Assembly: GCA_905612275.1 (NCBI GenBank)
Contig: CAJQRM010000003.1
Coordinates: 9,305 to 41,304 of the forward strand
Source: an uncultured Candidatus Nitrosopumilus sp.
GTDB lineage: Archaea; Thermoproteota; Nitrososphaeria; Nitrososphaerales; Nitrosopumilaceae
Reading direction: 5' to 3'
DNA length: 32,000 nt
The notes under the pieces are model-generated. The model saw only the letters and a list, made by a program, of their open reading frames with translations. It did no database searches and had not been told where the DNA came from. The position numbers were made by a program, and so were the translations under genes. Below are positions 953 through 19,982 of this stretch, one piece after another (the first letter of the stretch is position 1; every line of letters starts with the position of its first letter).

Positions 953-2320
953 TTATCTTGCATTAAAAAAATGATTCAAACAATAGAATAAACCCCGTTT
1001 GTATACACTACCTACTCTATCATATTTCAAGTGCGATCCAAGATCGGCATTACTCCAATTTGCTTTTTGGGGTCCTATCAATAACCACTTCAATAATCGT
1101 ATATCTAACGATATGACCATGTATTGTTCCAATTTTCTTAAAGTATTTTCATTTATTTTGTTAATTCCTTTTCCATTACAACTTATTTCAACCATTAATT
1201 CTTCATTGTTGATATCATTAGTTTTTAGAATAATAACTGTGTTTGAAATCCAGTTTATTTTTTGTCGAATTTTTTCAAAATTTTCATAAGCTTTTCCCAT
1301 TAAATCATATATTTCAGATGCTTTTGGTTTTGATTCAAATTCATAATTAAATTTTTTATATGATAAAATACTTTCAATGTATTTTTTCTTATCTTTTTTA
1401 TCTACTGGACTATACTCCTTACTACTTGTTCCTGTATCAATGTTAAACCAAGAATCGTTATTCAAAATTATGCCTTTGTATTTTTCTTGGGAGATATTTT
1501 TACATGTCCATTCAAATGCATCTTCTAATTCTGGTTCTCCTCTATATTCATTTAAACTAGTATTTTTTCCACATAATGTATAACGACCTGCAAAAGGAAT
1601 GTAATATTTTGGTTCTAGTAATTCTAAATATTCTTTGATTGTTTCAAGCTTTTTTTGTTGTTTTAAAATTGCTGCTGACTTTTTTTCTTCTTTGGGAAGA
1701 TTATAACAATGTGGCCATGATGATGCTGCAACATACCCTACTAACAATAAATCAATATTACCGTACATGGATTTAATTGAGGAAGCAGTAATTTTTGCAA
1801 TATCATATGGACAATCATTTGTATTTACAATTACTTGATTTTGATTATCAAAAACTGCAATTGTATCTATCTGAGTTGTTTGATATTTAAATTCAGATAA
1901 ACCACAACCCATTATATTTCCACAAATATTTGGATCACAATTATCTGCTGCTAAAATATTTAGATACATATTTTTTTTTATTTTGATTCTGATTCCATGC
2001 TCTAATTCAATTGTTTTAAATCCTAATCTTTCAATTTTATTTTTAAGAAATTTTTCTGGGAAATTATGAATTAGTATTGGAATATTTTTATTTAATTTTG
2101 ATAATGTTTTTGTAGATACATGATCAGAATGGATATGACTTACATAAATAAAATCAACATCTGAAAAGTTTTCTGGTTTAAAATCATATGGTGGATAAAT
2201 TGCCCATGACCCGATATATTCTTCTCCTTCTAACCATGGATCACATAGAATTTTGACCGTGGAACCCTCATTATCATCTTCAATTAAGATTGATGCAGAA
2301 TTTAATTGTGTAACTTTCAT
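953..2320 (-). CDS. Metallo-beta-lactamase-fold protein with a long C-terminal extension; specific function unknown
   Basis: 455-aa ORF. The HxHxDH zinc motif appears as VSHIHSDHVS near residue 60, in an N-terminal beta-lactamase-like context (ILCDPWLEGEE). The roughly 230 C-terminal residues have no motif I recognise. Confidence 0.7.
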   Translation of the reverse strand: MKVTQLNSASILIEDDNEGSTVKILCDPWLEGEEYIGSWAIYPPYDFKPENFSDVDFIYVSHIHSDHVSTKTLSKLNKNIPILIHNFPEKFLKNKIERLGFKTIELEHGIRIKIKKNMYLNILAADNCDPNICGNIMGCGLSEFKYQTTQIDTIAVFDNQNQVIVNTNDCPYDIAKITASSIKSMYGNIDLLLVGYVAASSWPHCYNLPKEEKKSAAILKQQKKLETIKEYLELLEPKYYIPFAGRYTLCGKNTSLNEYRGEPELEDAFEWTCKNISQEKYKGIILNNDSWFNIDTGTSSKEYSPVDKKDKKKYIESILSYKKFNYEFESKPKASEIYDLMGKAYENFEKIRQKINWISNTVIILKTNDINNEELMVEISCNGKGINKINENTLRKLEQYMVISLDIRLLKWLLIGPQKANWSNADLGSHLKYDRVGSVYKRGLFYCLNHFFNAR

Positions 2321-6195: not shown

Positions 6196-8268
6196 ATGCG
6201 CCCGATTAAGATATTTTTATGTGATTTCACATATGATACTGTTACTTTATCAGTTGATGGTTTTCCATTGAATGTAGGATATATTGCATCATATGCAAAA
6301 ATGAAATTCAAGGAAAAAGTTGAAATTCATCTTTTTAAATATATAGAAAAACTTGAAGAGGCTCTTGAAACATCAATTCCAGATGTTATTGGATTTGCTA
6401 ATTATGCTTGGAATAGGCAAATCAATAAAGAAATCTCTAGAATATTTCTAGAAAAAAATAAGAATGGATTAGTAGTTTGGGGTGGTCCAAATTTTCCTGC
6501 TGATGTTAAATCACAAGAATCTTTTTTTAAAAAATTTCCTCAAGTTGATATTTATGTTCCTATTGAAGGTGAAATCGGATTCTCAAATATTATAAAAGAA
6601 ATCTTTACCTTGCCTTCATTTGATCTTATACGAAAAAACATTCTCACAAAATCTGTACCTGGTTGTATAGTAAAATCTGATGATGGAAAATTAAACTTCT
6701 CATTTTCTACAGAGAGAATTAAATCGCTTGATGAAATTCCTTCACCCTATCTTACTGGTATTTTAGATGAATTTTTTGATGAAAGATTAGTTCCAATGAT
6801 TCAAACTAATCGTGGATGCCCATTTTCATGTACCTTTTGTGTTGATGGTTCTGATTCTGTAAATAAGATTAATCAATTTTCTACACAACGTGTTGATGAA
6901 GAATTAAATTATATTGCTAAACATGTTCCAAATAACCAACACAATCTTCACATCAGTGATCTAAATTTCGGAATGTATACAAGAGATGTTGAAGTATGTG
7001 ATTCAATAAATAATATCCAAGAAAAATATGGTTACCCACATTTTGTAAAAATTACAAGTGGAAAAAATAATCCTGAAAAAATTGGAAAAGCAATAAAAAA
7101 ACTTGGAAACACAACAAGTATGTCACTAAGTGTACAATCATTAAACGATCAAATACTATCTAATATTAAACGAGACAATATTAGTTCTGAAAAATTGGTT
7201 CAGCTTGGTCCAGCATTAAAAAATGAAGGACTTGATACTGTGTGTGATGTAATACTTGGATTACCTGGTGAAACTTATGATACAGCTATTCAAACAATAA
7301 AAGATGTTCTTAACGCAAACATAGACTGGATAAATATCTGGACTCTGATGCTTCTTGATGGTTCTGAACTTAATACGCCTAAAGAACGAGAAAAATGGAA
7401 TCTAAAATCTAAATTTAGAATAATCCCTAGAGATTTTGTTAAATTTAAGTCTGGAAAAGTTGTTATGGAAATTGAAGAGGTTGGTATTGGTACAAATGCT
7501 CTATCTTTTAATGATTATGTTGAATTACGACTTTTCAGTTTAATAATAAAAATAATCTCTGCTACACCTTGTTATAGATCTATATTCAAATTTATAAAAT
7601 TTTATGATGTAAAAATATTTGATTTGGCTTTTTCCATGCTTAAGAATACTAATCTTTCTTCAAAAAAATTACAGATATTCTTTGAGGAATTTAAGCAATA
7701 CACTATTGATGAATTATGGGATTCTGAAGCTGAATTAATTGAACATTATCAGAATCCTTTGGAATATGAAAAATTATTGAATGGAAGTGTTGGTCAAAAT
7801 GTTGCCTTTTATTTTCATGCAATTGCAATATCTGATCATATGTCTGATTTTACAGACTTTATTATACAGAATTCAAGAATATTACTTGAAAATCACACAA
7901 TAGATGATTTTAATTCCCAATTAAATTCTATTGAACAATACTGTAAAGGAAGTTGCGAAAACATTTTTGGTGAAGATAGATTGAAATCAAATCCTGAATT
8001 TATTTTTGATTATGATATTTTAACTTGGATGAATACTGGAGTAACTGCTTCATTGAACTCGTTTAAACTAGATCAAAAATCTAAAATTAAATTTTCTTTA
8101 ACACAAGAACAGTATGATGTATTAGAAGATAAATTAAATATATTTGGTCATAATAAAATTGGAAAAAGCCAATCTGTTAACTGGGTTCCTCAACATCTTT
8201 TTTGGCGAAAACCTTTACTGCAAAATAATAAAGGTAGTAGATCCGCTGGTTCCAGTCTAGACAAATAG
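6196..8268 (+). CDS. B12-binding-domain (class B-like) radical SAM protein, paralog 1 (690 aa)
   Basis: The CX3CX2C radical SAM motif occurs in TNRGCPFSCTFCVDG. The N-terminal Rossmann-like region (DVIGFANYAW...VVWGGPNFP) is typical of cobalamin-binding-domain radical SAM enzymes. It is collinear over its full length with the ORF at 13410-15485. Confidence 0.85.
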   Translation: MRPIKIFLCDFTYDTVTLSVDGFPLNVGYIASYAKMKFKEKVEIHLFKYIEKLEEALETSIPDVIGFANYAWNRQINKEISRIFLEKNKNGLVVWGGPNFPADVKSQESFFKKFPQVDIYVPIEGEIGFSNIIKEIFTLPSFDLIRKNILTKSVPGCIVKSDDGKLNFSFSTERIKSLDEIPSPYLTGILDEFFDERLVPMIQTNRGCPFSCTFCVDGSDSVNKINQFSTQRVDEELNYIAKHVPNNQHNLHISDLNFGMYTRDVEVCDSINNIQEKYGYPHFVKITSGKNNPEKIGKAIKKLGNTTSMSLSVQSLNDQILSNIKRDNISSEKLVQLGPALKNEGLDTVCDVILGLPGETYDTAIQTIKDVLNANIDWINIWTLMLLDGSELNTPKEREKWNLKSKFRIIPRDFVKFKSGKVVMEIEEVGIGTNALSFNDYVELRLFSLIIKIISATPCYRSIFKFIKFYDVKIFDLAFSMLKNTNLSSKKLQIFFEEFKQYTIDELWDSEAELIEHYQNPLEYEKLLNGSVGQNVAFYFHAIAISDHMSDFTDFIIQNSRILLENHTIDDFNSQLNSIEQYCKGSCENIFGEDRLKSNPEFIFDYDILTWMNTGVTASLNSFKLDQKSKIKFSLTQEQYDVLEDKLNIFGHNKIGKSQSVNWVPQHLFWRKPLLQNNKGSRSAGSSLDK

Positions 8269-8576: not shown

Positions 8577-8579
8577 GCA

Positions 8580-9500
8580 TTAGGTTTGATTTGATTTTAA
8601 TTTTGAGACCAAGGTACAAACTGAGCATACATTGCCTGTGCATTCACTACCACATTTTTCACAATTTGTTTTTTTCTTAGTATTTGATTTGGAGTTTTTC
8701 ATTACTTCAGAAACTTTGATAATTGATTGATACAAATTATTTTTAATTCCACTGCGTTGACTTTCTAATAAATTTAAAAATTCACGAATATCTGTTCTTA
8801 TTCCTTCATTCATGTGTGGACATGGTTCAGATTGAAATGGCATATCATTTGTGAATGCATAAAATACAATTTCAGATTCATATATTTCACAAAATGGTTT
8901 TATTTTTCTTAAAGAATTTGCTGATGTGTCTGGATTCATCCAACCTACTTTAGTTGTATCACCAGAAAGCATATTTATCACAAATGTTTGTAATGTATCA
9001 TCTAAATTATGACCTGTTGCAATTACATCTGCTCCAATATCATTTGCTGCATAATCCATTGCACGTCTTCGAAATGTTCCACACATTGAACATGATGATG
9101 TTTTTTCACTTTCTCGTAAATCTAATGCCTCATCAAGTGTTAAATCAAAAAGATCTTTGTAAGAATATATTTTATATTCTACATTTAGTTTACCACAAAC
9201 TTTTTTGACAATTTCTAATGCCTCATTTCTATATCCTGGAATTCCTTCATCAATTGTTATTACTTTAATTCTAAAACTATGTGTTAATGACATTTCATGA
9301 ATAACTTTGAGTAATGCTAGAGAATCTTTTCCACCTGATACTGCAACTGCAACTAATTCATCATGTTTAATCATTTTATATTTTGAAATAGTTTTAGCAG
9401 TTTTTTTTACAATGGATTTTGAAAAACATTCAGAGCATAGCTTTTCACCTGAATATTTTCTTGTGTATGCTGCTTGATTTTTACATCTATCGCAGGTCAT
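8580..9500 (-). CDS. PP-loop ATPase, tRNA 2-thiolation protein of the TtuA/NcsA (Ncs6/TtcA) family
   Basis: PP-loop SGGKDS in AVAVSGGKDSLALL. There are an N-terminal CxxC...CxxC zinc finger (CDRCKNQ...CSECF), central Fe-S ligand cysteines (SSCSMCGTFRR, PCPH) and a C-terminal Cys cluster (CEKCGSECTGNVCSVC). Confidence 0.85.
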   Translation of the reverse strand: MTCDRCKNQAAYTRKYSGEKLCSECFSKSIVKKTAKTISKYKMIKHDELVAVAVSGGKDSLALLKVIHEMSLTHSFRIKVITIDEGIPGYRNEALEIVKKVCGKLNVEYKIYSYKDLFDLTLDEALDLRESEKTSSCSMCGTFRRRAMDYAANDIGADVIATGHNLDDTLQTFVINMLSGDTTKVGWMNPDTSANSLRKIKPFCEIYESEIVFYAFTNDMPFQSEPCPHMNEGIRTDIREFLNLLESQRSGIKNNLYQSIIKVSEVMKNSKSNTKKKTNCEKCGSECTGNVCSVCTLVSKLKSNQT

Positions 9501-9645: not shown

Positions 9646-10599
9646 TTAAATATTTTTAAATATTTTGCCATGATTAATTTTTTTTAAAAGTTCAATTATG
9701 TTATTTTTTTCAACAGAAATTGGATTATTATCTAAATGTTTTCTATCTTTAAGTATAATTTCACTTGCTGTATCAAAATCTTGTTTTAAAAATATTGGTT
9801 CAAAATTTAATTTTTTAACTAATTTTTTAAATCTTGAATAAAAAATTGAATTATTAAAAAAATGAGATGCTGTAGTAGTAAATGCTAATGCATGTCCATG
9901 ACTATAACCTTCATTAGAAAAAACGTATGATAGAGCATGACCTAATGTTGTTGAACAGTTACCAAATCCTAATCCAGTCATGAGTGAACCTAATGCTAAG
10001 TTTTCATATTTTTCATTAATAATTGCATCTTCCAAAATATCAAATGCTTTTTTACATAAAAATTTGGTATGATAATTTCCACTTTTACTATCATATCCTT
10101 CTGAACATTGAGCACAAGCATCTATTGCAGAATTTCTTAAAATTTTGGGGGGGCAATTATTTAAAAAATATGAGTCAACAATAGCAATATCTGCAAAAAT
10201 TTGTTTATCATGAAAACTTTTCTTTTTTCCATTTATTGTTAATACTGAAATTTTTGTTACTTCGCTACCACTGCCAAATGTTGTAGGAATCATAATTTTT
10301 CTCTTCTTTAATTTGAAACCTACAAATTTTGCAACATCTAAAGAACTACCTCCTCCAAGTCCTATAACTGTAGAAAATTTTTCATTTTTAAATTGGGAAA
10401 TTATGTTTTCAACAGTATTCATTGAAGGGTTTGGTTCAACATTATCAAATATTTTAAAATTATTTCCTTTAATATAATCAATCCATCCACGAGATTTTGC
10501 ACCTTTTGAAGTGATTATTAAGCAATCATTTGGATATGAATACTCTGATGCTGCATATTTACCAAAAATTATATGATTAGGTTGTTGAATTTGAAACAA
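9646..10599 (-). CDS. Iron-containing (group III) alcohol dehydrogenase, candidate phosphonoacetaldehyde reductase (PhpC/FomC/Pdh-like)
   Basis: 317-aa ORF starting with TTG. It has the Fe-ADH glycine motif GLGGGSSLDVAKF and a His-rich metal region (GHALSY...SHGHALA). It is divergent from ppm across a 55-nt gap. The functional assignment comes from context. Confidence 0.75.
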   Translation of the reverse strand: MFQIQQPNHIIFGKYAASEYSYPNDCLIITSKGAKSRGWIDYIKGNNFKIFDNVEPNPSMNTVENIISQFKNEKFSTVIGLGGGSSLDVAKFVGFKLKKRKIMIPTTFGSGSEVTKISVLTINGKKKSFHDKQIFADIAIVDSYFLNNCPPKILRNSAIDACAQCSEGYDSKSGNYHTKFLCKKAFDILEDAIINEKYENLALGSLMTGLGFGNCSTTLGHALSYVFSNEGYSHGHALAFTTTASHFFNNSIFYSRFKKLVKKLNFEPIFLKQDFDTASEIILKDRKHLDNNPISVEKNNIIELLKKINHGKIFKNI

Positions 10600-10622
10600 T
10601 TAGATCATTATTGAATAACATG

Positions 10623-10632
10623 TTTTTTATAA
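10623..10632. promoter_or_regulatory. Putative shared TATA element for the divergent adh and ppm genes
   Basis: TTTTTTATAA is centred about 27 nt from the ppm ATG (10655) and about 29 nt from the adh TTG (10599). This is compatible with leaderless transcripts in both directions. Confidence 0.3.
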
Positions 10633-10654
10633 CTTACATTTCTCAGATGAAATC

Positions 10655-11551
10655 ATGAATCAAGCTGAAAATTTAGTTAATTTATTAGAAAAAAAAGAAA
10701 TCGTGAAGGTTTGTGGAGCATATGATGCGATGTCAGCAAAACTAGTTGAATTGAATGGATTTGACGCTATTTGGGCTGGAAGTTTTGCAATTTCAGCAAT
10801 TCATAATGTTCCAGATGCAAGTATTTTAACAATGACAGAATTCTTTAACGCTGCATCAAATATGGCACAAACATGTCAGATTCCAGTTATTGCAGATTGT
10901 GATACAGGTTATGGTGATGCAAATAATGTAAGACATATGGTTAAAAAATATGAGAATGCAGGAATTGCAGGAATTTGTATGGAAGATAAAACATTTCCAA
11001 AATCAAACAGTTTACTTAAAGGTGGAGATAATCAATTATTGTCTGAAAAAGATTTTGTAGCAAAAATTTTAGCTGCAAATGAAGCAAAACAAAATAAATC
11101 ATTTACAATAATTGCTCGTATTGAGGCATTAATTTCAGGTATAGGAATGAAAGAAGCTCTCAAAAGAGCATATGCTTATGAAAAGGCAGGTGCTGATTTA
11201 ATTTTGATTCATTCAAAAAAAATTTCACCAGAGGAGATTTTTGAATTTTCAGAATCTTGGAATGGTAGTGTTCCTCTCGTAGTTATTCCAACAACATATT
11301 ATTCAGTAAAAATTGATGAATTAATAGATCATAAAATAAAAATGGTCATATATGCAAATCAAACATTAAGAGCAGTTCATTTATCACTTTCAAGATTACT
11401 TCAGAAAATGAGTGATGCTAACAGTATGGATGAGGTACAAGATCAAATGTCATCTATGGAAGATATTTTTCAATTACAAGAAACGTATGATTTAAAATCT
11501 CAAGAAAAAAGTATTGAAGAAAAATTACGCAAACTAGGTTATATCGCTTGA
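10655..11551 (+). CDS. ppm: Phosphoenolpyruvate mutase (PEP phosphomutase)
   Basis: 298-aa ICL/PEPM-fold protein carrying the Ppm-diagnostic EDKx5NS motif as GICMEDKTFPKSNSL, plus ADCDTGYGD. Confidence 0.9.
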   Translation: MNQAENLVNLLEKKEIVKVCGAYDAMSAKLVELNGFDAIWAGSFAISAIHNVPDASILTMTEFFNAASNMAQTCQIPVIADCDTGYGDANNVRHMVKKYENAGIAGICMEDKTFPKSNSLLKGGDNQLLSEKDFVAKILAANEAKQNKSFTIIARIEALISGIGMKEALKRAYAYEKAGADLILIHSKKISPEEIFEFSESWNGSVPLVVIPTTYYSVKIDELIDHKIKMVIYANQTLRAVHLSLSRLLQKMSDANSMDEVQDQMSSMEDIFQLQETYDLKSQEKSIEEKLRKLGYIA

Positions 11552-12036
11552 AAAAATTATTTCAGCATGAAATATTAGATTTTTTTGTGAAAAATGACAT
11601 AGAAAATTTTGTTGGTGTTCCTGATTCTACCTTAAAACAGTTTATTTCTTATGCACTTAAAAAAAAGAAAATCATTATTGCAGCCAGAGAAGAAGAAGCT
11701 ATAGGTATAGCTACTGGAATGGCATTATCTGGAAGTAATTCATTAGTTTTTATGCAAAATGCAGGATTTGCAAATTCGTTAAGTACAATTACTTCATTAG
11801 TTCAATTATACAAAATCCCGTTAATTTTTTTAATTGGTTGGAGGGGCTATCTAAAAGAAGATGCACCAGAACATCGTAAAATTGGGAAGATTCAACCGGA
11901 TTTATTAAAAATTATTCAATTACCAACAAAAATTATTTCAGATAAAAATTGGAAAAAGAGTTGTAAATGGGCCATTAACAAAATAGAGAGTAAAAAATCA
12001 TGTGCATTGGTAATAAGAAGGGAATTTTATGATTAG
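11548..12036 (+). CDS. ppd: Phosphonopyruvate decarboxylase, alpha (N-terminal TPP pyrimidine-binding) subunit
   Basis: 162 aa with a TTG start that overlaps the ppm stop by 4 nt. VGVPDSTLKQF...REEEAIGIATGMALSG...MQNAGFANS is typical of Ppd/ComD N-domains. Confidence 0.85.
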   Translation: MKKLFQHEILDFFVKNDIENFVGVPDSTLKQFISYALKKKKIIIAAREEEAIGIATGMALSGSNSLVFMQNAGFANSLSTITSLVQLYKIPLIFLIGWRGYLKEDAPEHRKIGKIQPDLLKIIQLPTKIISDKNWKKSCKWAINKIESKKSCALVIRREFYD

Positions 12037-12577
12037 AAAAGAAGCAATGAGAATAATTTTAGAAGAAATTGGGGATGATCCAATTATATCTGCAAATGGA
12101 TTTATCAGCAGAGATCTTTTTGAATTAAAAGAAAAAAATACAAATTTTTACATGATAGGTTCTATGGGACTTGCTTCATCAATTGGGTTAGGGGTAGCAA
12201 TAAAAAATCCAAAAAAAACAATTTATGTTTTTGATGGTGATGGCAATATTCTTATGAATTTAGGATCATTAACAACAATTGGAACAATTAAACCAAAAAA
12301 TTTTATTCATATTATATTTGATAATCATGCTCATGAATCTACTGGAGGTCAACCAACAAATACAAAAAATATTTCAATTTCAAACATTGGAAAAGTAACT
12401 AATTTCCATGTTTTTGAAATAAATGATATAAATAATCTGAGGAGACAAATTAAAAAAATTAAAAAAATTAATGGTACAATAATGATTGTTGTAAAAATTA
12501 ATAATAGTAAAATACGAAGTGGGCGCGTTACACTAGATCCAGTACTTATAAAAAACAGATTCATGGAATCATTATAG
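12029..12577 (+). CDS. ppd: Phosphonopyruvate decarboxylase, beta (C-terminal TPP diphosphate-binding) subunit
   Basis: 182 aa, overlapping the alpha subunit by 8 nt. The TPP motif is GSMGLASSIGLG...FDGDGNILMNLGSL...FDNHAHESTGGQPT. Confidence 0.85.
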   Translation: MIRKEAMRIILEEIGDDPIISANGFISRDLFELKEKNTNFYMIGSMGLASSIGLGVAIKNPKKTIYVFDGDGNILMNLGSLTTIGTIKPKNFIHIIFDNHAHESTGGQPTNTKNISISNIGKVTNFHVFEINDINNLRRQIKKIKKINGTIMIVVKINNSKIRSGRVTLDPVLIKNRFMESL

Positions 12578-12584
12578 AATAAAA

Positions 12585-13334
12585 TTGAAAGCGATAATTA
12601 TTGCAGCAGGTATAGGATCAAGGTTAGGTAATTTAACAAAGAATTTACCAAAACCTTTGATAGATGTGAATGGTAAATCAATTATTGAAAGACAGATTTC
12701 ATCATTTAGAAAGGTTGGAATTAATGAAATTACAATAGTTACAGGTTATAAAAAAAATAAATTCATTTTTAAAAATATTAATTATGTGTTTAATCCAAAA
12801 TATGAAGAGGTAGAACAAGCATTTAGTTTAATGGTTGCACGAAAACAAATTTTTGGTGATGTCATTATATCTTTTGGTGATATAATTTTTGAAGATAAAA
12901 TAATTGAACAAATTTTAGAAATAAAAAATGATGTTGTGATAGGTGTAGAACAGAATTGGATGAAATCATATGAAAAAAGAGAAGATAATCCACCCACAAT
13001 GTCAGATTTTATTGCAATTAAAAATGGAAAAATAATCAAACTTTTTAGAAATTTAAAAGAATTTGATGAAGATTGTGTGATTACGGAGTTTACTGGTTTA
13101 TTCAAATTATCTCCAAAAGGTTCAAAAATAATTACTGAAAAATATACATTTCTAGAACAAAATCATTCGGGTAAATTTCATGATGCTATTTCATTGAAAA
13201 AAGCAAAAATCATTGATCTGTTACAAGAATTATATGAAAATGGTATCAATATGGAAGCACATATCTTAAAAGGGAAATGGTGTGAAATTGATACTCAACA
13301 AGATTTAGAAATAGCTAAACAAATGTTCAAGTAG
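12585..13334 (+). CDS. LicC/PntC-type nucleotidyltransferase (candidate phosphonate cytidylyltransferase), copy 1
   Basis: 249 aa. The TTG start is confirmed by alignment with copy 2. The N-terminal NTP-binding loop is (M)KAIIIAAGIGSRLG..LPKPLIDVNGKSIIERQI, and the C-terminus is GKWCEIDTQQDL. It lies 7 nt downstream of ppd-beta. Confidence 0.8.
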   Translation: MKAIIIAAGIGSRLGNLTKNLPKPLIDVNGKSIIERQISSFRKVGINEITIVTGYKKNKFIFKNINYVFNPKYEEVEQAFSLMVARKQIFGDVIISFGDIIFEDKIIEQILEIKNDVVIGVEQNWMKSYEKREDNPPTMSDFIAIKNGKIIKLFRNLKEFDEDCVITEFTGLFKLSPKGSKIITEKYTFLEQNHSGKFHDAISLKKAKIIDLLQELYENGINMEAHILKGKWCEIDTQQDLEIAKQMFK

Positions 13335-13409
13335 GAAATTTTCCTTTTAAGTTATACAAATCAGATTTTAAAAAATAGTTTATATATCGATAAAAATAAT
13401 TAAGATTCT

Positions 13410-15485
13410 TTGAAAAGTAATAACCCATTAAAGATCTATTTAGGGGATTTAACATATGATACAGTTACTTTAGCCACAGAAGCTATGCCACTCAATGTTG
13501 GTTATGCAGCAAGTTACTGTATCAAAAAATTTGGATCAAATGTTGATATTACGATTTTCAAATATATTGATGAATTAGATACAGCCATACATAATTCACC
13601 GCCAGATATTTTGGGTTTAAGTAATTATTGTTGGTCACATAATGTAAGTCTTGAAATGTTCAAAATGTTAAGAAAAGTAAAACCGGATGCAATAACGGTT
13701 ATGGGTGGACCGAATTTTCCCATTGATTTTCCATCTCAAGGAAAATTTATGAAAAAAAATTCACAAATTGATTACTATGTTCCCATAGATGGAGAAGAAG
13801 GTTTTTCAAATATTGTTGAACATGCATTAAATTCAACTCGTGAAAAAATGAGAGACGAAGTATTAAAAAATGAGATCGATGGATGTGTTTCATTAGATCC
13901 AGATGGAAAATTAAAATATACAATTCCTGTACTTAGAATAAAACATCTGGATGAAATACCATCGCCATACACAACAGGATTAATGGATAAATTTTTTGAT
14001 GGAAAACTTACACCAATGTTACAAACAAACAGAGGATGTCCTTTCAAATGTACATTTTGCACTGATGGGAAAGATGAAGTTAACAAAGTGAATTCATTTA
14101 GTACAAAAAGGGTCAAGGAAGAACTTGATTATATGGTAAAAATGATTCCAGAGAATACACATAATTTGTTAATTAGTGATTTAAATTTTGGAATGTATCC
14201 ACGTGATCAAGAAACTTGTGATTATATTGCTGAACATCAAAAAAAACATGATTTTCCACATTTTATTCTAGTTTCAACGGGTAAAAATCAAAAAGAAAAA
14301 ATTATCAAAGCCATTAACAAATTAAGTAGTTCAATAAGATTAGTAATGTCAGTTCAATCTATGGATCAAGAAGTTCTAACAAATATCAAAAGAGATAACA
14401 TTAGTGTTGATCAAATGATGCAATTAGCACCTGCTATTAAAGATGCCAAATTACTTACAAGATCTGAAGTGATTTCTGGATTACCAGGAGATACCTATGA
14501 AATTGAAATTAATACTCTACGGGATTTGGTTCATGCAAAGATGGATGAAATACAAGTACATACTTGTATGTTACTTGATGGATCTGAAATGGCGACTCCT
14601 GCAGAAAGAAAGAAATGGAAGTTCATCACAAGGTTCAGAGTTCTTCAAAGAGATTTTGCAGAATTAAGTAATGGTAAAAAAGTTGTAGAAGTTGAAGAAG
14701 TAGTAGTTGGCAATGAGAAAATGACTATAGACGAGTATGTTCAAATTCGCATTTTGGCATTTATTATCTATGTAACAGGAAGAGGAATTGTATATGATCC
14801 AATTTTGAAGATTCTTAGAGAACATGAAATTGATATTTTTGATTTTTATTTAAGAATCAAAGATAGTTTAGATACAGCGCCAGAATTAATTCAAGATTTG
14901 TTTAATCGTTTTGAGCAATCTACACGAAATGAATTATGGGATTCCAAAGAAGAAATATTAGAATATTATCAAAATAGTAAAAATTACCAAAAACTATTGG
15001 ATGGAGAAGATGGGATTAATGTAATGTATCATTATCTAGCTGAAGTAACTGTAGAAAACATGGATTCATGGGGAGATTATATTTTAAGAATTGCTAAAAA
15101 TCTATTACAAGAATTAAAAGAAAATAGTATGGACATCGATGAAGAATTTTTGCAAATTTCAAATTATTGTCATGGTGTATCACATAATACTATGGGAGTA
15201 GATCGTATGTTAACAAACCCAGAATTTGAATTTAGTTATGATATTATTAATTGGTTAGAAGATTCTAATGAAGCACATCTATCAAACTTCAAACTTCAAC
15301 AATCGACGAAAATTTCATTTCAATTGACAGATGAACAATTTAAATCCATTCAAGATACCATTGAAATGTTTGGAAATACAAAAGTTGGAAGAAGTAAGGC
15401 AATGAGAATGATAGCAGTGGAAACTCTTTGGAGACGGCCTATCAAATTAGTTAAAAATAATTTAGAAAATCAAATAGTTCAGTAA
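13410..15485 (+). CDS. B12-binding-domain (class B-like) radical SAM protein, paralog 2 (691 aa)
   Basis: TTG start. The CX3CX2C motif occurs in TNRGCPFKCTFCTDG. The N-terminal region is ILGLSNYCW...VMGGPNFP. It lies on the same strand as ppm-ppd-NT1, 75 nt downstream of NT1. Confidence 0.85.
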   Translation: MKSNNPLKIYLGDLTYDTVTLATEAMPLNVGYAASYCIKKFGSNVDITIFKYIDELDTAIHNSPPDILGLSNYCWSHNVSLEMFKMLRKVKPDAITVMGGPNFPIDFPSQGKFMKKNSQIDYYVPIDGEEGFSNIVEHALNSTREKMRDEVLKNEIDGCVSLDPDGKLKYTIPVLRIKHLDEIPSPYTTGLMDKFFDGKLTPMLQTNRGCPFKCTFCTDGKDEVNKVNSFSTKRVKEELDYMVKMIPENTHNLLISDLNFGMYPRDQETCDYIAEHQKKHDFPHFILVSTGKNQKEKIIKAINKLSSSIRLVMSVQSMDQEVLTNIKRDNISVDQMMQLAPAIKDAKLLTRSEVISGLPGDTYEIEINTLRDLVHAKMDEIQVHTCMLLDGSEMATPAERKKWKFITRFRVLQRDFAELSNGKKVVEVEEVVVGNEKMTIDEYVQIRILAFIIYVTGRGIVYDPILKILREHEIDIFDFYLRIKDSLDTAPELIQDLFNRFEQSTRNELWDSKEEILEYYQNSKNYQKLLDGEDGINVMYHYLAEVTVENMDSWGDYILRIAKNLLQELKENSMDIDEEFLQISNYCHGVSHNTMGVDRMLTNPEFEFSYDIINWLEDSNEAHLSNFKLQQSTKISFQLTDEQFKSIQDTIEMFGNTKVGRSKAMRMIAVETLWRRPIKLVKNNLENQIVQ

Positions 15486-15493
15486 AACTTGTA

Positions 15494-16279
15494 TTAATTT
15501 TCTACCGGAGGATATTTTAATTCATCAAGGCGAATTATTTTTGATTTCCAGTTATCATTATCAAAAGAAAAAATTCTAAAACCAGGTGGAATTGGATCAC
15601 ATTTTAAAAAATCTGTTCCTTTTTGAAATTGAACACTAGTAGCAGGAGTGGTAAATATGGTAATGTTTTCTAAATGTCCCTGAAATTCTTGATGTACATG
15701 ACCACAACTAATCAACCGAATTTGTGGATTTTGTTTTAAAGTTTCTATAAAAGGATCAGGATTTTTTAGACCCAGTAAATCAGTCCATTTTGTTTTTACA
15801 GGTATTGGGGGGTGATGCTGAAATAGAATAGTGTTTTTATTTTTATATTTATTTAACATACTTTTTAACCAAAGTAACGTTTCATCAGAAATTGTACCAT
15901 AAAGCTTTCCAAATACATGAGTATCCAATCCTATCAACTGCCAAGAATTGGTAGAAATTGAAAAATTTATGGGTCCATTTTTATTTTCTACACATTCAGG
16001 AAAAACTTTACGAATTAATTTTCTATCATCATGATTTCCAGGAATGATCTTACATTTTGAAATCATATCACCTAAGAGTTCTTTCACTGTTTGATAGCTA
16101 ATTAATTCCTCATCAGAAGTAAGATCACCAGTAATAATGATATGATCAAAAGTAATGTTCAAATCTACAACTTTAACTAAAATATCTTTTAGGGTTTTGA
16201 TAGTTGGAACACCAAAAAATTTTGTTTTAGGATCAGAAAATATATGAAAATCAGTTAGTTGTAAAACATTTAGAACCAC
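15494..16279 (-). CDS. Calcineurin-like metallophosphoesterase (CpdA/GpdQ-type phosphodiesterase)
   Basis: 261 aa with a GTG start. All signature motifs are present in order: LTDFH (DxH), ITGDL (GD), PGNHDD (GNHD/E), FQHHPP and CGHVH (GHxH). Confidence 0.8.
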   Translation of the reverse strand: MVLNVLQLTDFHIFSDPKTKFFGVPTIKTLKDILVKVVDLNITFDHIIITGDLTSDEELISYQTVKELLGDMISKCKIIPGNHDDRKLIRKVFPECVENKNGPINFSISTNSWQLIGLDTHVFGKLYGTISDETLLWLKSMLNKYKNKNTILFQHHPPIPVKTKWTDLLGLKNPDPFIETLKQNPQIRLISCGHVHQEFQGHLENITIFTTPATSVQFQKGTDFLKCDPIPPGFRIFSFDNDNWKSKIIRLDELKYPPVEN

Positions 16280-16402
16280 AATTTATCTAATTCATAATAC
16301 TTTATAATTAATTGTAAATCAAAATTGAAGTTATGATTTTTGAAATTATTCAACAGTGTTATATATTGAATTCAAGAACGTAATATTCTGACTAAAAAGA
16401 AA

Positions 16403-16903
16403 GTGTATAATGGTAAAGCCTTCAATGTAAATATTCATAATTTAAAAATTAAAGGAAAAAAAGTCAAACGGGAAATTATCGATCAAGTTGATGCTGCAGT
16501 TGTTTTAGCATTTGATGGAAATGATGTGATTTTAATAAAACAGAATCATTTTCCACAAGGTAACCTACTTGAAATTCCTGGAGGCAAAATAGAAAAAGGG
16601 GAAAATCCAAAAACTGCAGCATCAAGAGAATTTTCGGAAGAGACTGGATATCAAGCAAAAAAAATTAAACATTTATTGACATTTTATCCAAATGTAGGGT
16701 ACAGTACTTTAACAATTCATTGTTTTGTTGCGTCTGAAGTAAAAAAAATCAAAAAACCAAAGCCAAATGATGAAGATGAATTCATAGAAGTAAAAAGAAT
16801 GAATTTCAAAAGACTTTTGGGATTAATTAAAAGTGGAAAAATTACTGATCTAAAAACTATTTGTGCTGCATTAATATATGAATCAAAATTTTTTGGTAAA
16901 TAA
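16403..16903 (+). CDS. Nudix hydrolase (nucleoside-diphosphate-X pyrophosphatase type)
   Basis: 166 aa with a GTG start. The Nudix box GX5EX7REUXEEXGU is present as GGKIEKGENPKTAASREFSEETGY. Confidence 0.85.
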   Translation: MYNGKAFNVNIHNLKIKGKKVKREIIDQVDAAVVLAFDGNDVILIKQNHFPQGNLLEIPGGKIEKGENPKTAASREFSEETGYQAKKIKHLLTFYPNVGYSTLTIHCFVASEVKKIKKPKPNDEDEFIEVKRMNFKRLLGLIKSGKITDLKTICAALIYESKFFGK

Positions 16904-16940
16904 TAGACTAAATTATATTTCTTTAAAATTTTATAAATTT

Positions 16941-17693
16941 ATGAAAGCCATAATTCTTGCAGCTGGAATTGGTTCTAGATTAGGTGAACTAACAAAAATA
17001 TTACCGAAATCGTTGATAGATGTGAATGGCAAATCAATTATTGAAAGACAAATTGAAGTATTTAGGAAAGCTGGTATTAATGATATAATTCTTGTAATTG
17101 GTCCATTTGCTGAAAAGTTTTTGTTTAACAATGTCAAATACATTAATGGAAAAAAAACATTTTCACATAACATTCTTTATTCTTTAATTGAAGCTAAATC
17201 TGAAATGACAGATGATGTTATTATTTCATACGGCGATATAATTTTTGAAGATAGTATAATTCAAGCAATTTTAAATTCTAAAAATGAAATTGGTTTAGCA
17301 GTAGATCTTAAATGGAAAGAAATGTACCAAAATAAACCTAAAAATCTTGTAGATAAAGTATGTAATGTATTTATTGAAAATAACAAAATTATAAAAATTG
17401 GATATAAAGAAAATTTAGGAGAATCAGAGGGTAAAATTATTGGAGAATTTATCGGGTTAGCTAAATTTAGTAAAAAAGCTATAGATAATTTTCTAGAAAT
17501 TTATTTAGAATTAGAAAAATCTCATAATGGAAAATTTCATGAATCACCATCAATAAAAGAAGGCATCATCACTGATATGTGTCAAGAACTTATAGATAGA
17601 AACTATATCATAAATCCAATTTTTACAGATGGAAAATGGTGTGAAATTGATACTATAGATGATTTGAAAAATGCAAAAATATTATTTCAATAA
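16941..17693 (+). CDS. LicC/PntC-type nucleotidyltransferase, copy 2
   Basis: The track ORF starts at 16878, but alignment with copy 1 places the start at ATG 16941 (MKAIILAAGIGSRLGELTKILPKSLIDVNGKSIIERQI). Shared blocks are DVIISYGDIIFED, HNGKFH and GKWCEIDTIDDL. Confidence 0.8.
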   Translation: MKAIILAAGIGSRLGELTKILPKSLIDVNGKSIIERQIEVFRKAGINDIILVIGPFAEKFLFNNVKYINGKKTFSHNILYSLIEAKSEMTDDVIISYGDIIFEDSIIQAILNSKNEIGLAVDLKWKEMYQNKPKNLVDKVCNVFIENNKIIKIGYKENLGESEGKIIGEFIGLAKFSKKAIDNFLEIYLELEKSHNGKFHESPSIKEGIITDMCQELIDRNYIINPIFTDGKWCEIDTIDDLKNAKILFQ

Positions 17694-17696
17694 AAT

Positions 17697-18830
17697 TTAA
17701 TTAATTATTGATCTTTCTTGAATTTTTAAGAATTCTTTCCACAAAATATTTTCAATTTCTAATCCAGTGTTAATGAGGTTATTTTCTTCAAGAGAATCAT
17801 GTTTCAAATCATACAATTCTTTAGTATTATTATGCTCATTTACAATTAATTTCCATTCAGAGGTACGGATTGATTTTGTATTAGGTTTTTTTGGTGGCAT
17901 TTTACTATTAAGAGGATTTCCAGTCTCAGTGTAGGCAAAATTCTCTTTAGGATTTTGATTATTAATCAAAGGTAATAATGAAACTCCATCTAATGGTTCA
18001 AAATTGGTATCTAATTTAATTTCCAAGTGTTCAAGAATTGTAGGCATGAAATCTACACTTCTTACTTGGGAAGTTATCTCATTGTGTTTTAAATCTGAAG
18101 AGAAATAAGAATAAAATGTATTAATTGTGGATTCATAACAAAGTGCCCCATATGCACGTTCACCAAATTTTTCTCCTAAACTCATTCCATGATCTGAAAA
18201 AATTATTATTATAGAATTTTCCCATAAGTTTAACTCATCTAATTTTTGTTGAATATATTCAAGATATTTTTCAGCATCTGTAAACAATCTATCATATCTT
18301 TCTTCATTTTGTTTCCTATTTTTAAAATATTCATCACTAAAATTAGTAAATGATTTTAAAACAGAATCTCGTATGCCTTCATGAATTCCACTATAATGTA
18401 AATGTAGGAAAAAATTTTGTTTTGAATCTACCAATTTTTTCATTTTACATAATAATTTGTAATGATGAGTTTTAAGATTAATGTTACTTTCATCAGATAC
18501 ATAATATTCATCAAAATTTCTTCGTGGCATGATTAAATCAGAAGGAACATCTGCACAGGTATAGAAATTATTTTCATGTAAATAATCAATAATTGTTTTA
18601 AATTTAACATGATTAAATTTATGTGAATGCCAATAGCTGTAACACCCAGTTCTATTTCCATATGATCCACTAATTAAAGCATATAATGCTGAATTAGTGT
18701 ATGGTGCATAAGGTATTGATTGTGAAAAGAAAACAGAATGTTCTTTTCCAAAATTTTGTATTATAGATGAATTTTTTGCTCTATCTACTCTACCACCATC
18801 AATACAAATTAAAATTAAATTTTTTTTCAA
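17697..18830 (-). CDS. Alkaline-phosphatase-superfamily enzyme (sulfatase-fold) lacking the sulfatase CxPxR motif; probable phospho/phosphono-ester transferase or hydrolase
   Basis: 377 aa and apparently soluble. It has an N-terminal metal-binding ICIDGGR and the IIFSDHGMSLGE motif of the sulfatase/AP fold. The nucleophile position reads YAPYTNSALYALISG instead of C/S-x-P-x-R. Confidence 0.7.
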   Translation of the reverse strand: MKKNLILICIDGGRVDRAKNSSIIQNFGKEHSVFFSQSIPYAPYTNSALYALISGSYGNRTGCYSYWHSHKFNHVKFKTIIDYLHENNFYTCADVPSDLIMPRRNFDEYYVSDESNINLKTHHYKLLCKMKKLVDSKQNFFLHLHYSGIHEGIRDSVLKSFTNFSDEYFKNRKQNEERYDRLFTDAEKYLEYIQQKLDELNLWENSIIIIFSDHGMSLGEKFGERAYGALCYESTINTFYSYFSSDLKHNEITSQVRSVDFMPTILEHLEIKLDTNFEPLDGVSLLPLINNQNPKENFAYTETGNPLNSKMPPKKPNTKSIRTSEWKLIVNEHNNTKELYDLKHDSLEENNLINTGLEIENILWKEFLKIQERSIIN

Positions 18831-19049
18831 TTATATTTTCTAAATTTTCTAGTTTACTTATATCACTTTTGCGAATCAATATATTAATTAAAATATACAG
18901 AATTCTACATCTAAATCCTGAATGCAGGATTAAATAAAATAATAATTGATGAAAATTTAGTTTGGGATGAAATATTAGGCTCTAAAAAAGAGAAATTTCT
19001 TGTCACAATTAATGCATCAATAATTAACCTGCTAATAGAAAATAGGGAA

Positions 19050-19847
19050 TTGTTTAGTACGGCAGATCCAGATAATTTCAGTTTTTTAGAACCCGTGGTT
19101 TCTGATTTTAAGAAGATATTGGTTTCAGGTTGTGGTTTTGTAATCATTGATGGTACGAGTTTTGAAAAATTTTCTAAAGAAGAAGTTCAAATGATTTATC
19201 AAATTTTTGCTAAATCTTTAGGTGAATTATATGTTCAAAATATCAAAAAAGAAAAATTAGTTTTAATTAAAAATGAAGGTAAATCAATGAAAACTGGTGG
19301 AAGATATCATCAAACAAAAGAAGGTGGATCATATCATACAGATAGTCCTCAATGGGAAAATGTTCCAGATATAATTGGATTATGTTGTATTAATCCTGCA
19401 AAAACTGGAGGAACAAGTAAATTTATCAGTAGTTATACAGTTCATAATCTATTTTTACAAAAGGATAGTCAATTATTAGAAATATTATACAATAAATTTT
19501 ATTTTGATAAAAGAGGTGAAATAAAAGAAAATGAAGAACCAACTATTTTTGAACCAATAATGCAATTTAAAAATAATAAATTAATGTTTAGATATCTTAG
19601 AGACTATGTTGATAGTGGACATAAAATTCAAAATAAACCATTAACAGAGGAACAAGATAGATCATTAAAATTATTGGATGAAATTTTATCAGAAGAAAAT
19701 ATTGTAGTTAGTTATGATTTAAAGAAATTTGATATGACTTTTTTTAATAATCATAGAGTGATTCATGGGAGAACAAGTTTTGAAGATTTTGAAGATGAAG
19801 AAAAGAAAAGACTAATGATTAGAACTTGGATTAAATTTTCTTCTTAA
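19050..19847 (+). CDS. TauD/TfdA-family Fe(II)/2-oxoglutarate-dependent dioxygenase; the start codon is uncertain
   Basis: The HxD facial-triad motif appears in GGSYHTDSPQW, and the distal His/Arg in NNHRVIHGRTSF. The frame is open upstream to 18915 with coding-like sequence but no ATG/GTG/TTG before the TTG at 19050. Confidence 0.72.
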   Translation: MFSTADPDNFSFLEPVVSDFKKILVSGCGFVIIDGTSFEKFSKEEVQMIYQIFAKSLGELYVQNIKKEKLVLIKNEGKSMKTGGRYHQTKEGGSYHTDSPQWENVPDIIGLCCINPAKTGGTSKFISSYTVHNLFLQKDSQLLEILYNKFYFDKRGEIKENEEPTIFEPIMQFKNNKLMFRYLRDYVDSGHKIQNKPLTEEQDRSLKLLDEILSEENIVVSYDLKKFDMTFFNNHRVIHGRTSFEDFEDEEKKRLMIRTWIKFSS

Positions 19848-19982
19848 TTAAAATATATTCATGAAATTGATATGAGTTAAAAAATCCTAAGTATTAAGCT
19901 GATGTTAGAAATGCTAATTTAAGCCACTTTCTTTTATAATATTTTTATATTAATTTCTTAAAATAAGTTTTTTTAAGTATTT

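Follow-up and report, generated by a model that had tools for sequence, protein, structure and literature searches.

The 32,000-nucleotide stretch analyzed here, called the window throughout, comes from an uncultured Candidatus Nitrosopumilus sp. and carries a phosphonate gene cluster at positions 9646-19847. We hold, with a little more confidence than doubt, that this cluster makes a cell-surface phosphonate other than methylphosphonate, and that it does so in three stages. In the core stage, the phosphomutase Ppm would convert phosphoenolpyruvate (PEP) to phosphonopyruvate, a split decarboxylase (Ppd) would yield phosphonoacetaldehyde, and an Fe-dependent alcohol dehydrogenase (Fe-ADH) would reduce this to 2-hydroxyethylphosphonate (HEP). 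In the tailoring stage, the nucleotidyltransferase (NT) NT1 would condense HEP with a nucleoside triphosphate (NTP), probably CTP, to give a nucleoside monophosphate (NMP) conjugate, NMP-HEP; the radical S-adenosylmethionine (rSAM) enzyme rSAM_B would most likely methylate an sp3 carbon of the tagged HEP, the product by analogy with Fom3 being NMP-2-hydroxypropylphosphonate; an FrbJ-like 2-oxoglutarate (2OG) oxygenase would hydroxylate HEP or a derivative; and a Nudix hydrolase would strip the nucleotide tag. In the installation stage, NT2 would re-activate the finished phosphonate, and an alkaline-phosphatase-fold (AP-fold) enzyme with a Thr nucleophile would pass the phosphonyl group to a glycan hydroxyl, leaving a phosphonate ester on surface glycans or glycoproteins. 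We infer the tailoring stage from gene linkage and analogy, and likewise infer the installation stage; C-methylation, the use of CTP, the site of hydroxylation and the acceptor are postulated.

A more specific proposal is that epipelagic ammonia-oxidizing archaea (AOA) make a C-methylated and/or hydroxylated HEP derivative, not methylphosphonate, by a "tag, tailor, untag, re-tag" route independent of those to fosfomycin and FR-900098, and that a Thr-nucleophile AP-fold phosphonyl transferase of a kind not recognized before installs it on surface glycans. Example products would be 2-hydroxypropyl- or 1,2-dihydroxy(propyl/ethyl)phosphonate. We offer this version tentatively, as possible and distinctly doubtful.

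Protein identities were obtained from Pfam and NCBIfam profile searches of the window proteins, and solved relatives from sequence comparison with the PDB. Every open reading frame (ORF) that an earlier note on this DNA had listed for 9646-19847 was confirmed by these profiles. The gene order is ADH, then Ppm-PpdA-PpdB-NT1-rSAM-(metallophosphoesterase)-Nudix-NT2, then the AP-fold gene, then TauD:

9646..10599, minus strand: Fe-ADH, group III Fe-alcohol dehydrogenase (PF00465 1e-30; TIGR03405 Phn_Fe-ADH 86.7 bits, below cut-off)
10655..11551, plus strand: Ppm, PEP phosphomutase (PF13714 2e-56; TIGR02320 290.3 bits; EDKTFPKSNS)
11548..12036, plus strand: PpdA, alpha (N-terminal thiamine diphosphate, TPP) half of phosphonopyruvate decarboxylase (TIGR03297 114.6 bits, profile positions 2-153; PF02776)
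12029..12577, plus strand: PpdB, beta (C-terminal TPP) half of phosphonopyruvate decarboxylase (TIGR03297 186 bits, profile positions 171-358; PF02775)
12585..13334, plus strand: NT1, LicC/PntC-type nucleotidyltransferase (PF12804/PF00483; LicC 1JYK 5e-18)
13410..15485, plus strand: rSAM_B, cobalamin-dependent class B radical SAM protein (PF04055; PF02310 marginal; CPFKCTFC; TokK/CysS architecture)
15494..16279, minus strand: metallophosphoesterase (MPE), calcineurin-type, CpdA/GpdQ-like (PF00149 3e-14; NF008359 174 bits, cut-off 225)
16403..16903, plus strand: Nudix NDP-X pyrophosphatase (PF00293 1.5e-19; ADP-ribose/NDP-sugar pyrophosphatase relatives 1e-24)
16878..17693, plus strand: NT2, second LicC/PntC-type nucleotidyltransferase (PF12804/PF00483)
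17697..18830, minus strand: AP-fold enzyme, annotated as sulfatase (PF00884 3e-19; PF01663 1e-5, partial)
18918..19847, plus strand: TauD-type Fe(II)/2OG oxygenase (PF02668 5e-31; earlier ORF call from 19050)

The phosphonate core and the search for MpnS

The translation of Ppm carries the catalytic EDKx5NS motif as EDKTFPKSNS, where the earlier note had seen it, and the motif region is identical across six archaeal Ppm orthologs. TIGR02320 is its top model, with a score that falls under the cut-off (319.55 bits) and above those of the phosphonopyruvate hydrolase (236.8 bits) and methylisocitrate lyase (168.7 bits) models. Read directly from the sequence, ppm and ppdA overlap by 4 nt (cTTGA) and ppdA and ppdB by 8 nt (ATGATTAG), while ADH and ppm diverge from a 55-nt spacer, all as previously described. 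The split Ppd, a coupling partner that pulls the unfavorable mutase equilibrium, lies directly downstream of Ppm.

We propose from its sequence that the Fe-ADH is a phosphonoacetaldehyde reductase that forms HEP. The dehydrogenases that flank ppm in MpnS-type and rSAM-type clusters are orthologs of the window ADH (63-69% identity), and the whole ADH-Ppm-Ppd core is shared with MpnS clusters at 63-86% identity. Because the MpnS clusters need HEP, this orthology supports the previous suggestion that HEP is the branch-point intermediate of the cluster. The route from PEP through phosphonopyruvate and phosphonoacetaldehyde to HEP is thus well supported at the level of sequence.

Related loci (>120) were assembled from an rSAM-centered genome scan, exact-protein context look-ups and a Ppm-centered metagenome scan, and were annotated by tblastn with the window proteins and MpnS; the marine contigs found by similarity to the window Ppm are a sample biased toward relatives of the window. 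As MpnS query we used the 460-aa protein of a related metagenomic locus (L043), which matches 6B9S at 2e-173 and also detects HEPD (6e-80) and HppE (2e-10). Searching the 32-kb window with this query by tblastn revealed no MpnS, HEPD or HppE similarity, even at E=10, and the Pfam and NCBIfam scans of the window proteins found no aminotransferase. The earlier note, too, had seen neither a bicupin of this type nor a 2-aminoethylphosphonate (AEP) transaminase among the ORFs it translated. The only other ORF of MpnS-like length (455 aa, 953-2320) was considered as a hidden MpnS and rejected, being a metallo-beta-lactamase (MBL)-fold protein that matches neither MpnS nor HEPD at E<=1 and has no close counterpart of known function in the PDB. 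Each of the 17 archaeal loci that have MpnS carries its gene inside the ppm cluster, within a few kb of ppm, which makes a copy elsewhere in the source genome, beyond the 32 kb searched, unlikely.

Candidate tailoring and installation enzymes

NT1 begins 7 nt after the end of ppdB, in the same operon. It is paralogous to NT2 (48% identity), which probably starts at the internal ATG at 16941 rather than at 16878. Both proteins match PF12804 (2.5e-11 and 1.8e-12, respectively), PF00483 and, weakly, IspD, and neither matched PF01467 in the Pfam search. The G-x-G-x-R-L N-terminal signature of MobA-like NTP-transferase domains is present as AAGIGSRLG, and LicC is the best solved relative of NT1. 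PF12804 is the family of LicC, PntC and FrbH, and PF01467 that of the Fom1 CyTase domain; about two-thirds of phosphonate clusters encode an NT, and nucleotidyl activation is a general rule in such clusters (PMC6697681).

In a tree of 73 NT sequences, the clades follow gene neighbors. NT1-type genes always adjoin rSAM or TauD. NT2-type genes always lie between the Nudix and AP-fold genes, and in the tree they cluster with the NT from minimal and MpnS clusters; further clades are made up of NTs from the minimal "PpdB-NT-AP-fold" arrangement, of NTs adjacent to MpnS and of NTs that accompany the rSAM in the second cluster type. We propose, by analogy, that NT1 is the tailoring NT, which would join HEP to an NTP (probably CTP), and that NT2 is the installation NT, a partner of the AP-fold enzyme.

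Natural fusions bear on both assignments. An exhaustive search of 1.84 billion representative proteins with NT1 returned full-length relatives of 30-38% identity, among them fusions to PEP mutase (P0300 and P0368; Ppm-NT and NT-Ppm), to Fe-ADH (P0272), to a genuine MpnS (P0279; 6B9S 2e-144) and to AP-fold domains (P0294 and P0320; NT-Phosphodiest and Sulfatase-NT). Three relatives carry adenylylsulfate (APS)-kinase domains, and P0333 is a C26/GATase-NT-PPDK-like fusion reminiscent of the Campylobacter O-methyl phosphoramidate pathway. These architectures appear to link NTs of this family with phosphonate (and phosphoramidate) metabolism and to couple them physically with the AP-fold enzyme, and they fit the published rule of nucleotidyl activation. 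In one related locus (L001, Marine Group I single-amplified genome (SAG) N8), an adenylylsulfate-kinase-like gene (8206-8742) and a 126-aa ORF (8793-9173) stand between ADH and NT1. Together with the APS-kinase-NT fusions, the kinase-like gene hints at a 3'-phosphorylated nucleotide-phosphonate donor in some variants.

rSAM_B carries the CxxxCxxC motif as NRGCPFKCTFC inside its PF04055 domain (1.6e-12) and a PF02310 B12-binding match of 31.6 bits, just below the cut-off of 32.1. From residue 62 on, its cobalamin-binding domain can be aligned to TokK and CysS, and these two enzymes were its only strong PDB matches (8e-33 and 1e-30). An AlphaFold model of rSAM_B (pLDDT 85.5) gave Foldseek TM values of 0.72-0.77 to cobalamin-bound TokK over ~660 residues, 0.65-0.75 to CysS and 0.42-0.47 to OxsB/TsrM. 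Among NCBIfam models the KedN5 family (NF033712) scored best, at 184 bits and over profile positions 11-409 of 624 only (210 bits for the second radical SAM protein, rSAM_A), so far under its 700-bit cut-off that rSAM_B falls outside the KedN5 family. Other B12-rSAM models (PhpK, Sden_1168 P-methyltransferase, HpnR, HpnJ, BchE and ladderane rSAM) gave at most 53 bits, with the PhpK-family and Sden_1168 models at 36-51 bits. Searching a plasmid collection with the rSAM returned matches of 22-32% identity, one of them a KedN5-family gene; we interpret a match on the megaplasmid of Streptantibioticus cattleyicolor as the thienamycin (ThnK) region. Since TokK, CysS and the KedN5 family are the nearest characterized relatives, methylation of an sp3 carbon is by analogy the most likely chemistry of rSAM_B. 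According to their PDB entry titles, TokK and CysS were crystallized with pantetheinylated substrates, and such a handle would be in keeping with a tagged substrate for rSAM_B.

Homologs of this rSAM also occur in Acidobacteriota and others (loci L006-L038, rSAM at ~10001-12040) within conserved nonulosonic-acid clusters that encode NeuB, a NeuC-like 2-epimerase, a PglD-like acetyltransferase, a CBS-domain NT, a CMP-NulO synthetase, a short-chain dehydrogenase/reductase (SDR) and a Wzm/Wzt exporter, which suggests that the bacterial enzymes perform a radical C-modification of a nonulosonic acid. The second protein, rSAM_A, is 44% identical to rSAM_B and is encoded outside the cluster. Its orthologs (95-97% identity) occupy the same housekeeping position (L128), and its relatives at 56-59% identity stand beside COX/ArgH/SDH or GT4/epimerase genes. 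Nothing in these contexts links rSAM_A to phosphonate genes, and its membership in the pathway is unsupported; a lipid (Grs/Gmm-type) role may be possible for rSAM_A alone.

The Nudix protein has a Nudix box and a YffH/AdpP-type fold, and scores 69 bits against TIGR00052 (below the cut-off of 79.6). By analogy, we propose that it removes the nucleotide tag, splitting NMP-phosphonate into NMP and phosphonate; cleavage of this anhydride is the role of the Nudix protein FrbI in the FR-900098 pathway. The MPE, present only in a subset of window-type clusters (the window, L041, L045, L068 and L100), is proposed to be an accessory diesterase. Archaeal ppm neighborhoods with a comparable phosphoesterase have been listed as unclassified (PMC8942020).

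Alignment of 37 AP-fold homologs showed that the formylglycine C/S-x-P-x-R motif of S1 sulfatases is absent; in its place, all 37 carry aP(Y/H)T-x-x-x with an invariant Thr, and the NPP-type metal motifs IDGxR and SDHG are conserved. The missing CxPxR and the invariant Thr rule out the annotated identity as a true sulfatase. Phosphonate monoester hydrolases are among the weak PDB matches of the protein. No cluster type lacks its gene, which mostly converges with an NT gene and in some cases is fused to one. Based on the Thr-type site, the presence in all clusters and the pairing or fusion with NT, we propose that the enzyme consumes NMP-phosphonate, either by phosphonyl transfer through a phosphonyl-Thr or by diester hydrolysis. 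A TagF-type CDP-glycerol glycerophosphotransferase homolog (PF04464) lies by two window-type clusters (L046, 621-1760; L047, 2611-3576); it is an alternative candidate for a transferase that would use NMP-phosphonate, and is absent from the window.

The nearest solved relative of the TauD-type protein is FrbJ (5EQN, 3e-23), followed by a "predicted hydroxylase" and by gamma-butyrobetaine hydroxylases (BBOX, 1e-4), and it scores 38 bits against the NCBIfam phosphonate dioxygenase TmpA model. The residues of the HxD...H facial triad, in HTDSPQW and HGRTSF, are invariant in three aligned sequences (window, L045 and L046). We propose on these sequence grounds that it is a phosphonate C-hydroxylase of the FrbJ/BBOX branch; because TauD also occurs without rSAM (L097 and L098), its substrate need not be the rSAM product. 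The previous assignment to the TauD family stands, and the gene start moves from 19050: the frame is conserved 45 codons further upstream to 18918, ~130 nt before 19050, in alignment with 311-aa homologs. Position 18918 is a CTG in the window, right after a stop codon, and an ATG in the L041 remnant, L045 and L046. The CTG means either that translation begins at a near-cognate codon or that the original start has been weakened or lost.

Modularity of the island and rival explanations

The window-type gene order is present in at least 15 independent marine thaumarchaeal contigs, more than chance would give; it recurs in L001, L002, L045-L047, L049, L068 and L100 and partly in L052 and L064, and one homologous rSAM cluster, P0086, has entries in 42 blocks of an assembly collection. 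For 18 copies of rSAM_B the contig covers both sides of the gene. In 17 of these, an NT gene lies no more than 400 nt away and a Nudix gene no more than 3 kb; L033, with the order NT-TauD-rSAM, is the exception. Of 23 loci that carry rSAM or TauD, 20 have a Nudix gene, against none of the 25 loci with neither (Fisher 1e-10, a value that ignores the kinship of these loci, some of which are near-duplicates); for two of the three loci that break the pattern, the contig stops at the rSAM. This strict NT-rSAM-Nudix linkage, the NT fusions and the TokK/CysS architecture support a logic of nucleotide activation and B12-dependent radical chemistry, the portion of the earlier note's nucleotide-activated, rSAM-modified HEP that survives. 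Its treatment of the rSAM as a simple alternative to MpnS does not, because L043 and L044 carry both.

Thaumarchaeal ppm clusters share a constant core of ADH, Ppm, Ppd, one NT and one AP-fold enzyme, around which the tailoring genes vary. We observed MpnS-only clusters (~15 loci), clusters with rSAM, Nudix and a second NT but no TauD (L065, L071, L079 and L086), clusters with TauD and Nudix but no rSAM (L097 and L098), and minimal clusters of core, NT and AP-fold enzyme without MpnS, rSAM or TauD (L078, L087 and L110). TauD and MpnS never co-occur (13 versus 17 loci). Ppm identity to the window protein is 66-78% in MpnS-type loci and ranges from 66 to 94% in rSAM-type loci, the closest of which reach 80-94%. 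Window-type clusters are flanked on both sides by housekeeping genes (TtuA; M50/Pelota), and the homologous contigs L045-L047 and L100 reach 5-10 kb further without MpnS.

Two sets of loci display the exchange of genes directly. Compared over window positions 10028-20723, L049 shares the flanks and insertion site of the window (amino acid identities of 90% for ADH, 94% for Ppm, 93% for PpdA and 98% for M50), while its NT1, rSAM, Nudix, NT2, AP-fold and TauD proteins are only 46-62% identical to those of the window and Nudix lies in the opposite orientation; the tailoring genes have been replaced as one unit, and recombination is directly visible. L041 and L042, from two metagenomes, are 94% identical in DNA to window positions 12486-18980. 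Both retain only the last 29 ppm codons, the ppdA start fused in frame to the last 28 ppdB codons, and ~25 tauD codons (in L041 at 7890-8370 and 14609-14845, equivalent to window positions 12486 and 18980; likewise in L042). L041 had been a candidate for a cassette that works without phosphonate, which we downgraded: the ppm, ppd and tauD remnants mark a recent deletion, so the locus neither proves nor excludes an independent function of the cassette. Genes for DegT, dehydratase, acetyltransferase, GT4 and TagF-like proteins are found in related islands. The best explanation of these patterns is a modular, recombining island, of which the cluster represents one allele and whose sister alleles carry MpnS.

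A number of observations weigh against a route in which HEP is tagged, tailored, released and re-tagged for the cell surface. Removing a nucleotide with the Nudix hydrolase and restoring it with NT2 is energetically odd and wasteful. Archaeal sugar-1-phosphate NT models in NCBIfam score NT1 about equally to LicC, and no LicD-type or CDP-alcohol-type transferase was recognized in the cluster. Because of its CTG start, TauD may be poorly expressed in the window. The rSAM family is not phosphonate-specific, an idea ruled out by acidobacterial homologs (42% identity) in nonulosonic-acid clusters without ppm and by a homolog on a Nitrosopumilus chromosome that adjoins GT2, GtrA and epimerase genes. 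MpnS and rSAM coexist in L043 and L044, the NT-TauD-rSAM genes of L033 have no ppm within 10 kb, and L041/L042 keep NT1-rSAM-MPE-Nudix-NT2-AP-fold intact (92-97% amino acid identity) despite the ppm/ppd deletion. Given the nonulosonic-acid contexts without ppm and the cassette kept after that deletion, the substrate of the rSAM_B cassette may be something other than a phosphonate.

The main rival follows from these points, namely an rSAM not restricted to phosphonates, a cassette that outlives ppm/ppd, the coexistence of MpnS and rSAM, wasteful re-tagging and the CTG start. It holds that the core, NT2 and the AP-fold enzyme install plain HEP, and that NT1-rSAM-Nudix(-TauD) modifies another nucleotide-linked molecule, for example a sugar of the acceptor glycan. 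The CMP-sugar synthetases beside the bacterial rSAM homologs fit such a role, as do the GT2/GtrA/epimerase or GT4/epimerase neighbors of the archaeal paralogs; minimal clusters without MpnS exist, and HEP esters are abundant in marine dissolved organic matter of high molecular weight (HMW DOM; PMC5649143). However, there is no sugar-modifying gene between ppd and TauD in the window, NT1 follows ppdB by 7 nt in one operon, and the NT1 clade belongs to a family with fusions to Ppm, Fe-ADH and MpnS. The nearest solved relative of TauD is a phosphonate hydroxylase, and in archaeal ppm-centered loci the cassette sits directly beside the core. We consider this explanation unlikely.

The remaining alternatives fare worse. 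An ordinary methylphosphonate (MPn) cluster whose mpnS lies outside the 32-kb window, with the extra enzymes decorating or transferring MPn, is quite improbable: our search covered 32 kb of the genome and L043/L044 do combine MpnS with the rSAM-NT-Nudix set, but the window itself holds no MpnS/HEPD/HppE similarity, mpnS is within a few kb of ppm in 17 of 17 positive loci, none of 13 TauD-positive loci has MpnS, and window-type clusters have housekeeping flanks on both sides, with no MpnS in the longer homologous contigs. It is very improbable that the 690-aa B12 radical SAM proteins are lipid enzymes of the Grs/Gmm/Cgm type, which modify glycerol dialkyl glycerol tetraethers (GDGTs), and lie near phosphonate genes and Tes by chance. 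Archaeal GDGT ring synthases and methylases are indeed B12-rSAM proteins (bioRxiv 10.1101/2025.10.20.683597), Tes is 10 kb away, and rSAM_A has the stable housekeeping context of a core gene; rSAM_B, however, lies strictly between NT and Nudix/MPE in a flexible island and is patchy among ppm clusters, whereas grs is reported to be near-universal in AOA, at ~1:1 with amoA (PMC11442133). Homologs of rSAM_B are also common in Acidobacteria, within sugar clusters, and its closest characterized relatives act on small soluble substrates. We give least credence to phosphonate salvage or catabolism of the PhnY/PhnZ or TmpA/TmpB kind by TauD, phosphoesterase, Nudix and AP-fold enzyme. TauD-family PhnY and TmpA do start oxidative C-P cleavage, and the TmpA score and the phosphonate monoester hydrolases among the weak AP-fold matches point that way, but profile scans found no HD-domain PhnZ/TmpB, C-P lyase or transporter in the cluster, the genes are interleaved with ppm/ppd in a shared operon, and AOA are reported to be without phosphonate catabolism (PMC7490402, PMC9381506).

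Relation to characterized pathways and genomic setting

The cluster is of the known ppm-ppd-adh kind with nucleotidyl activation and is a sister of the Nitrosopumilus maritimus-type MPn cluster, which comprises Ppm, Ppd, Pdh and MpnS along with nucleotidyltransferases and "sulfatases". With the AOA MPn cluster, for which metagenomic locus L043 served as our basis of comparison, it shares an orthologous ADH-Ppm-split Ppd core, the NT family, the AP-fold "sulfatase" family, the host family Nitrosopumilaceae and the presumed destination of the product, esters on surface polysaccharide or glycoprotein (PMC9381506). The MPn cluster differs in having MpnS, where the window has NT1, a cobalamin-dependent rSAM, Nudix, a second NT, TauD and MPE.

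In Streptomyces fosfomycin biosynthesis, Fom1 cytidylylates HEP, the cobalamin-dependent radical SAM enzyme Fom3 C-methylates the resulting CMP conjugate, and FomD hydrolyzes CMP off (PMC9088020). The window has the same logic, with an NT-rSAM-hydrolase triad directly behind ppm, ppd and ADH, built from other parts: PF12804/PF00483 NTs in place of the PF01467 CyTase of Fom1, Nudix in place of the DUF402 protein FomD, no HppE epoxidase, and an rSAM of ~690 aa and TokK/CysS architecture that can be set beside Fom3 by logic only. Moreover, fosfomycin is a free antibiotic, whereas the window product is presumably glycan-bound. The label "fosfomycin-like" given to the cluster before therefore fails as a statement of kinship and holds as an analogy. 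Because the window NTs belong to the LicC/PntC/FrbH family PF12804 rather than to PF01467, the comparison supports a likeness of logic and not of descent, convergent with both Fom1/Fom3/FomD and FrbH/FrbI/FrbJ.

FrbH, FrbI and FrbJ of FR-900098 biosynthesis reportedly provide a tag-tailor-untag precedent in which CMP conjugates are modified and then released (work of Johannes and colleagues from 2010). A PF12804 NT, as in FrbH (PMC6697681), a Nudix protein and an FrbJ-like oxygenase are all encoded in the window. That pathway differs in its 3-aminopropylphosphonate skeleton and FrbC-type chain extension, whereas the window pathway would be HEP-derived, has an added rSAM and lies in an archaeal surface-glycan island. 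The bacterial phosphonyl-tailoring (Pnt) pathway, with its cytidylyltransferase PntC, likewise has a LicC-like NT beside ppm that activates a small phosphonate for surface glycans or lipids (PMC6697681), with AEP as substrate and a LicD transferase, in contrast to the two NTs, the Thr-type AP-fold partner and the absence of an AEP transaminase in the window. TokK/ThnK, CysS and KedN5 share the three-domain architecture and length (~650-690 aa) of rSAM_B and methylate unactivated sp3 carbons of handle-bearing small substrates. The resemblance is distant, at ~19% identity in structural alignment and ~28%, over about half the length, to the ThnK-region and KedN5-family plasmid genes, and the partners differ: carrier-protein/pantetheine machinery for TokK, CysS and KedN5, NT and Nudix for rSAM_B.

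What sets the cluster apart from every characterized pathway is that it combines a LicC-type NT, a TokK/CysS-type rSAM, Nudix, an oxygenase resembling FrbJ and an AP-fold enzyme of the Thr type, and has no MpnS, HppE or AEP transaminase. In agreement with the earlier note, which was aware of no characterized archaeal pathway of this kind, the literature searched, including surveys of archaeal mpnS and ppm (PMC7490402, PMC8931226, PMC9381506, PMC8942020), contains no description of the NT-rSAM-Nudix cassette.

Phosphonate genes in thaumarchaea are commonly interpreted as supplying methylphosphonate and, through it, the methane of oxic seawater. In our window-biased sample, many thaumarchaeal ppm clusters lack MpnS and carry the NT-B12 rSAM-Nudix(-TauD) set, and abundant ocean archaea probably make a phosphonate different from methylphosphonate. 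A third, propylene-yielding DOM phosphonate was reportedly described by Repeta and colleagues in 2016; our literature search returned nothing on propylene-yielding phosphonates in DOM. If the proposed pathway is correct, counts of ppm/pepM overestimate the archaeal potential for methane precursors, and a second, chemically distinct archaeal phosphonate may feed the HEP-type esters that are established in marine HMW DOM (PMC5649143). The more specific tag, tailor, untag, re-tag proposal would, if true, assign a biological origin to the non-methyl phosphonate esters of marine DOM, among which ethylene-yielding esters are documented. A cobalamin-dependent rSAM acting on a nucleotide-tagged phosphonate in an aerobe would be a lead for enzymology, and the Thr-type AP-fold enzyme would be the long-sought phosphonyl transferase of thaumarchaeal ppm clusters. 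Through the variants that occur in nature (MpnS-only, TauD-only, rSAM-only, both, and core-deleted), a comparative experiment is already laid out. mpnS is enriched in deep-water AOA (PMC7490402), with which the labeling of window-type locus L002 as Ca. Nitrosopelagicus is compatible.

The window has a G+C content of ~29%, and its nearest public relatives in the rSAM-centered genome scan are Marine Group I and Ca. Nitrosopelagicus assemblies. It encodes the archaeal markers Tes, AglB/STT3, Pelota, CDC48 and ribosomal protein L2. Housekeeping blocks flank the phosphonate cluster, the left one being CDC48-L2-acylphosphatase-rSAM_A-TtuA and the right one M50 protease-Pelota. Further features of the window are:

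953..2320, minus strand: MBL-fold protein, 455 aa (N-terminal metallo-beta-lactamase fold, weak Pfam matches)
6196..8268, plus strand: rSAM_A, second 690-aa B12 radical SAM protein, outside the cluster among DUF5655, acylphosphatase and TtuA
25157-26821, plus strand: Tes (NF045702, 690 bits)
26867-29095, plus strand: AglB/STT3
29103-31975: glycosylation genes

A 137-aa ORF without a Pfam match (22607-23020, minus strand) lies between Pelota and a UPF0047 gene. Tes is immediately upstream of AglB/STT3, which is followed by a GT4 glycosyltransferase, a Trm112-fused methyltransferase and a second GT4; AglB and three glycosylation genes are ~7 kb from the phosphonate cluster. In the SAG locus L033, the NT-TauD-rSAM trio immediately adjoins a GT4-AglB-Tes block.

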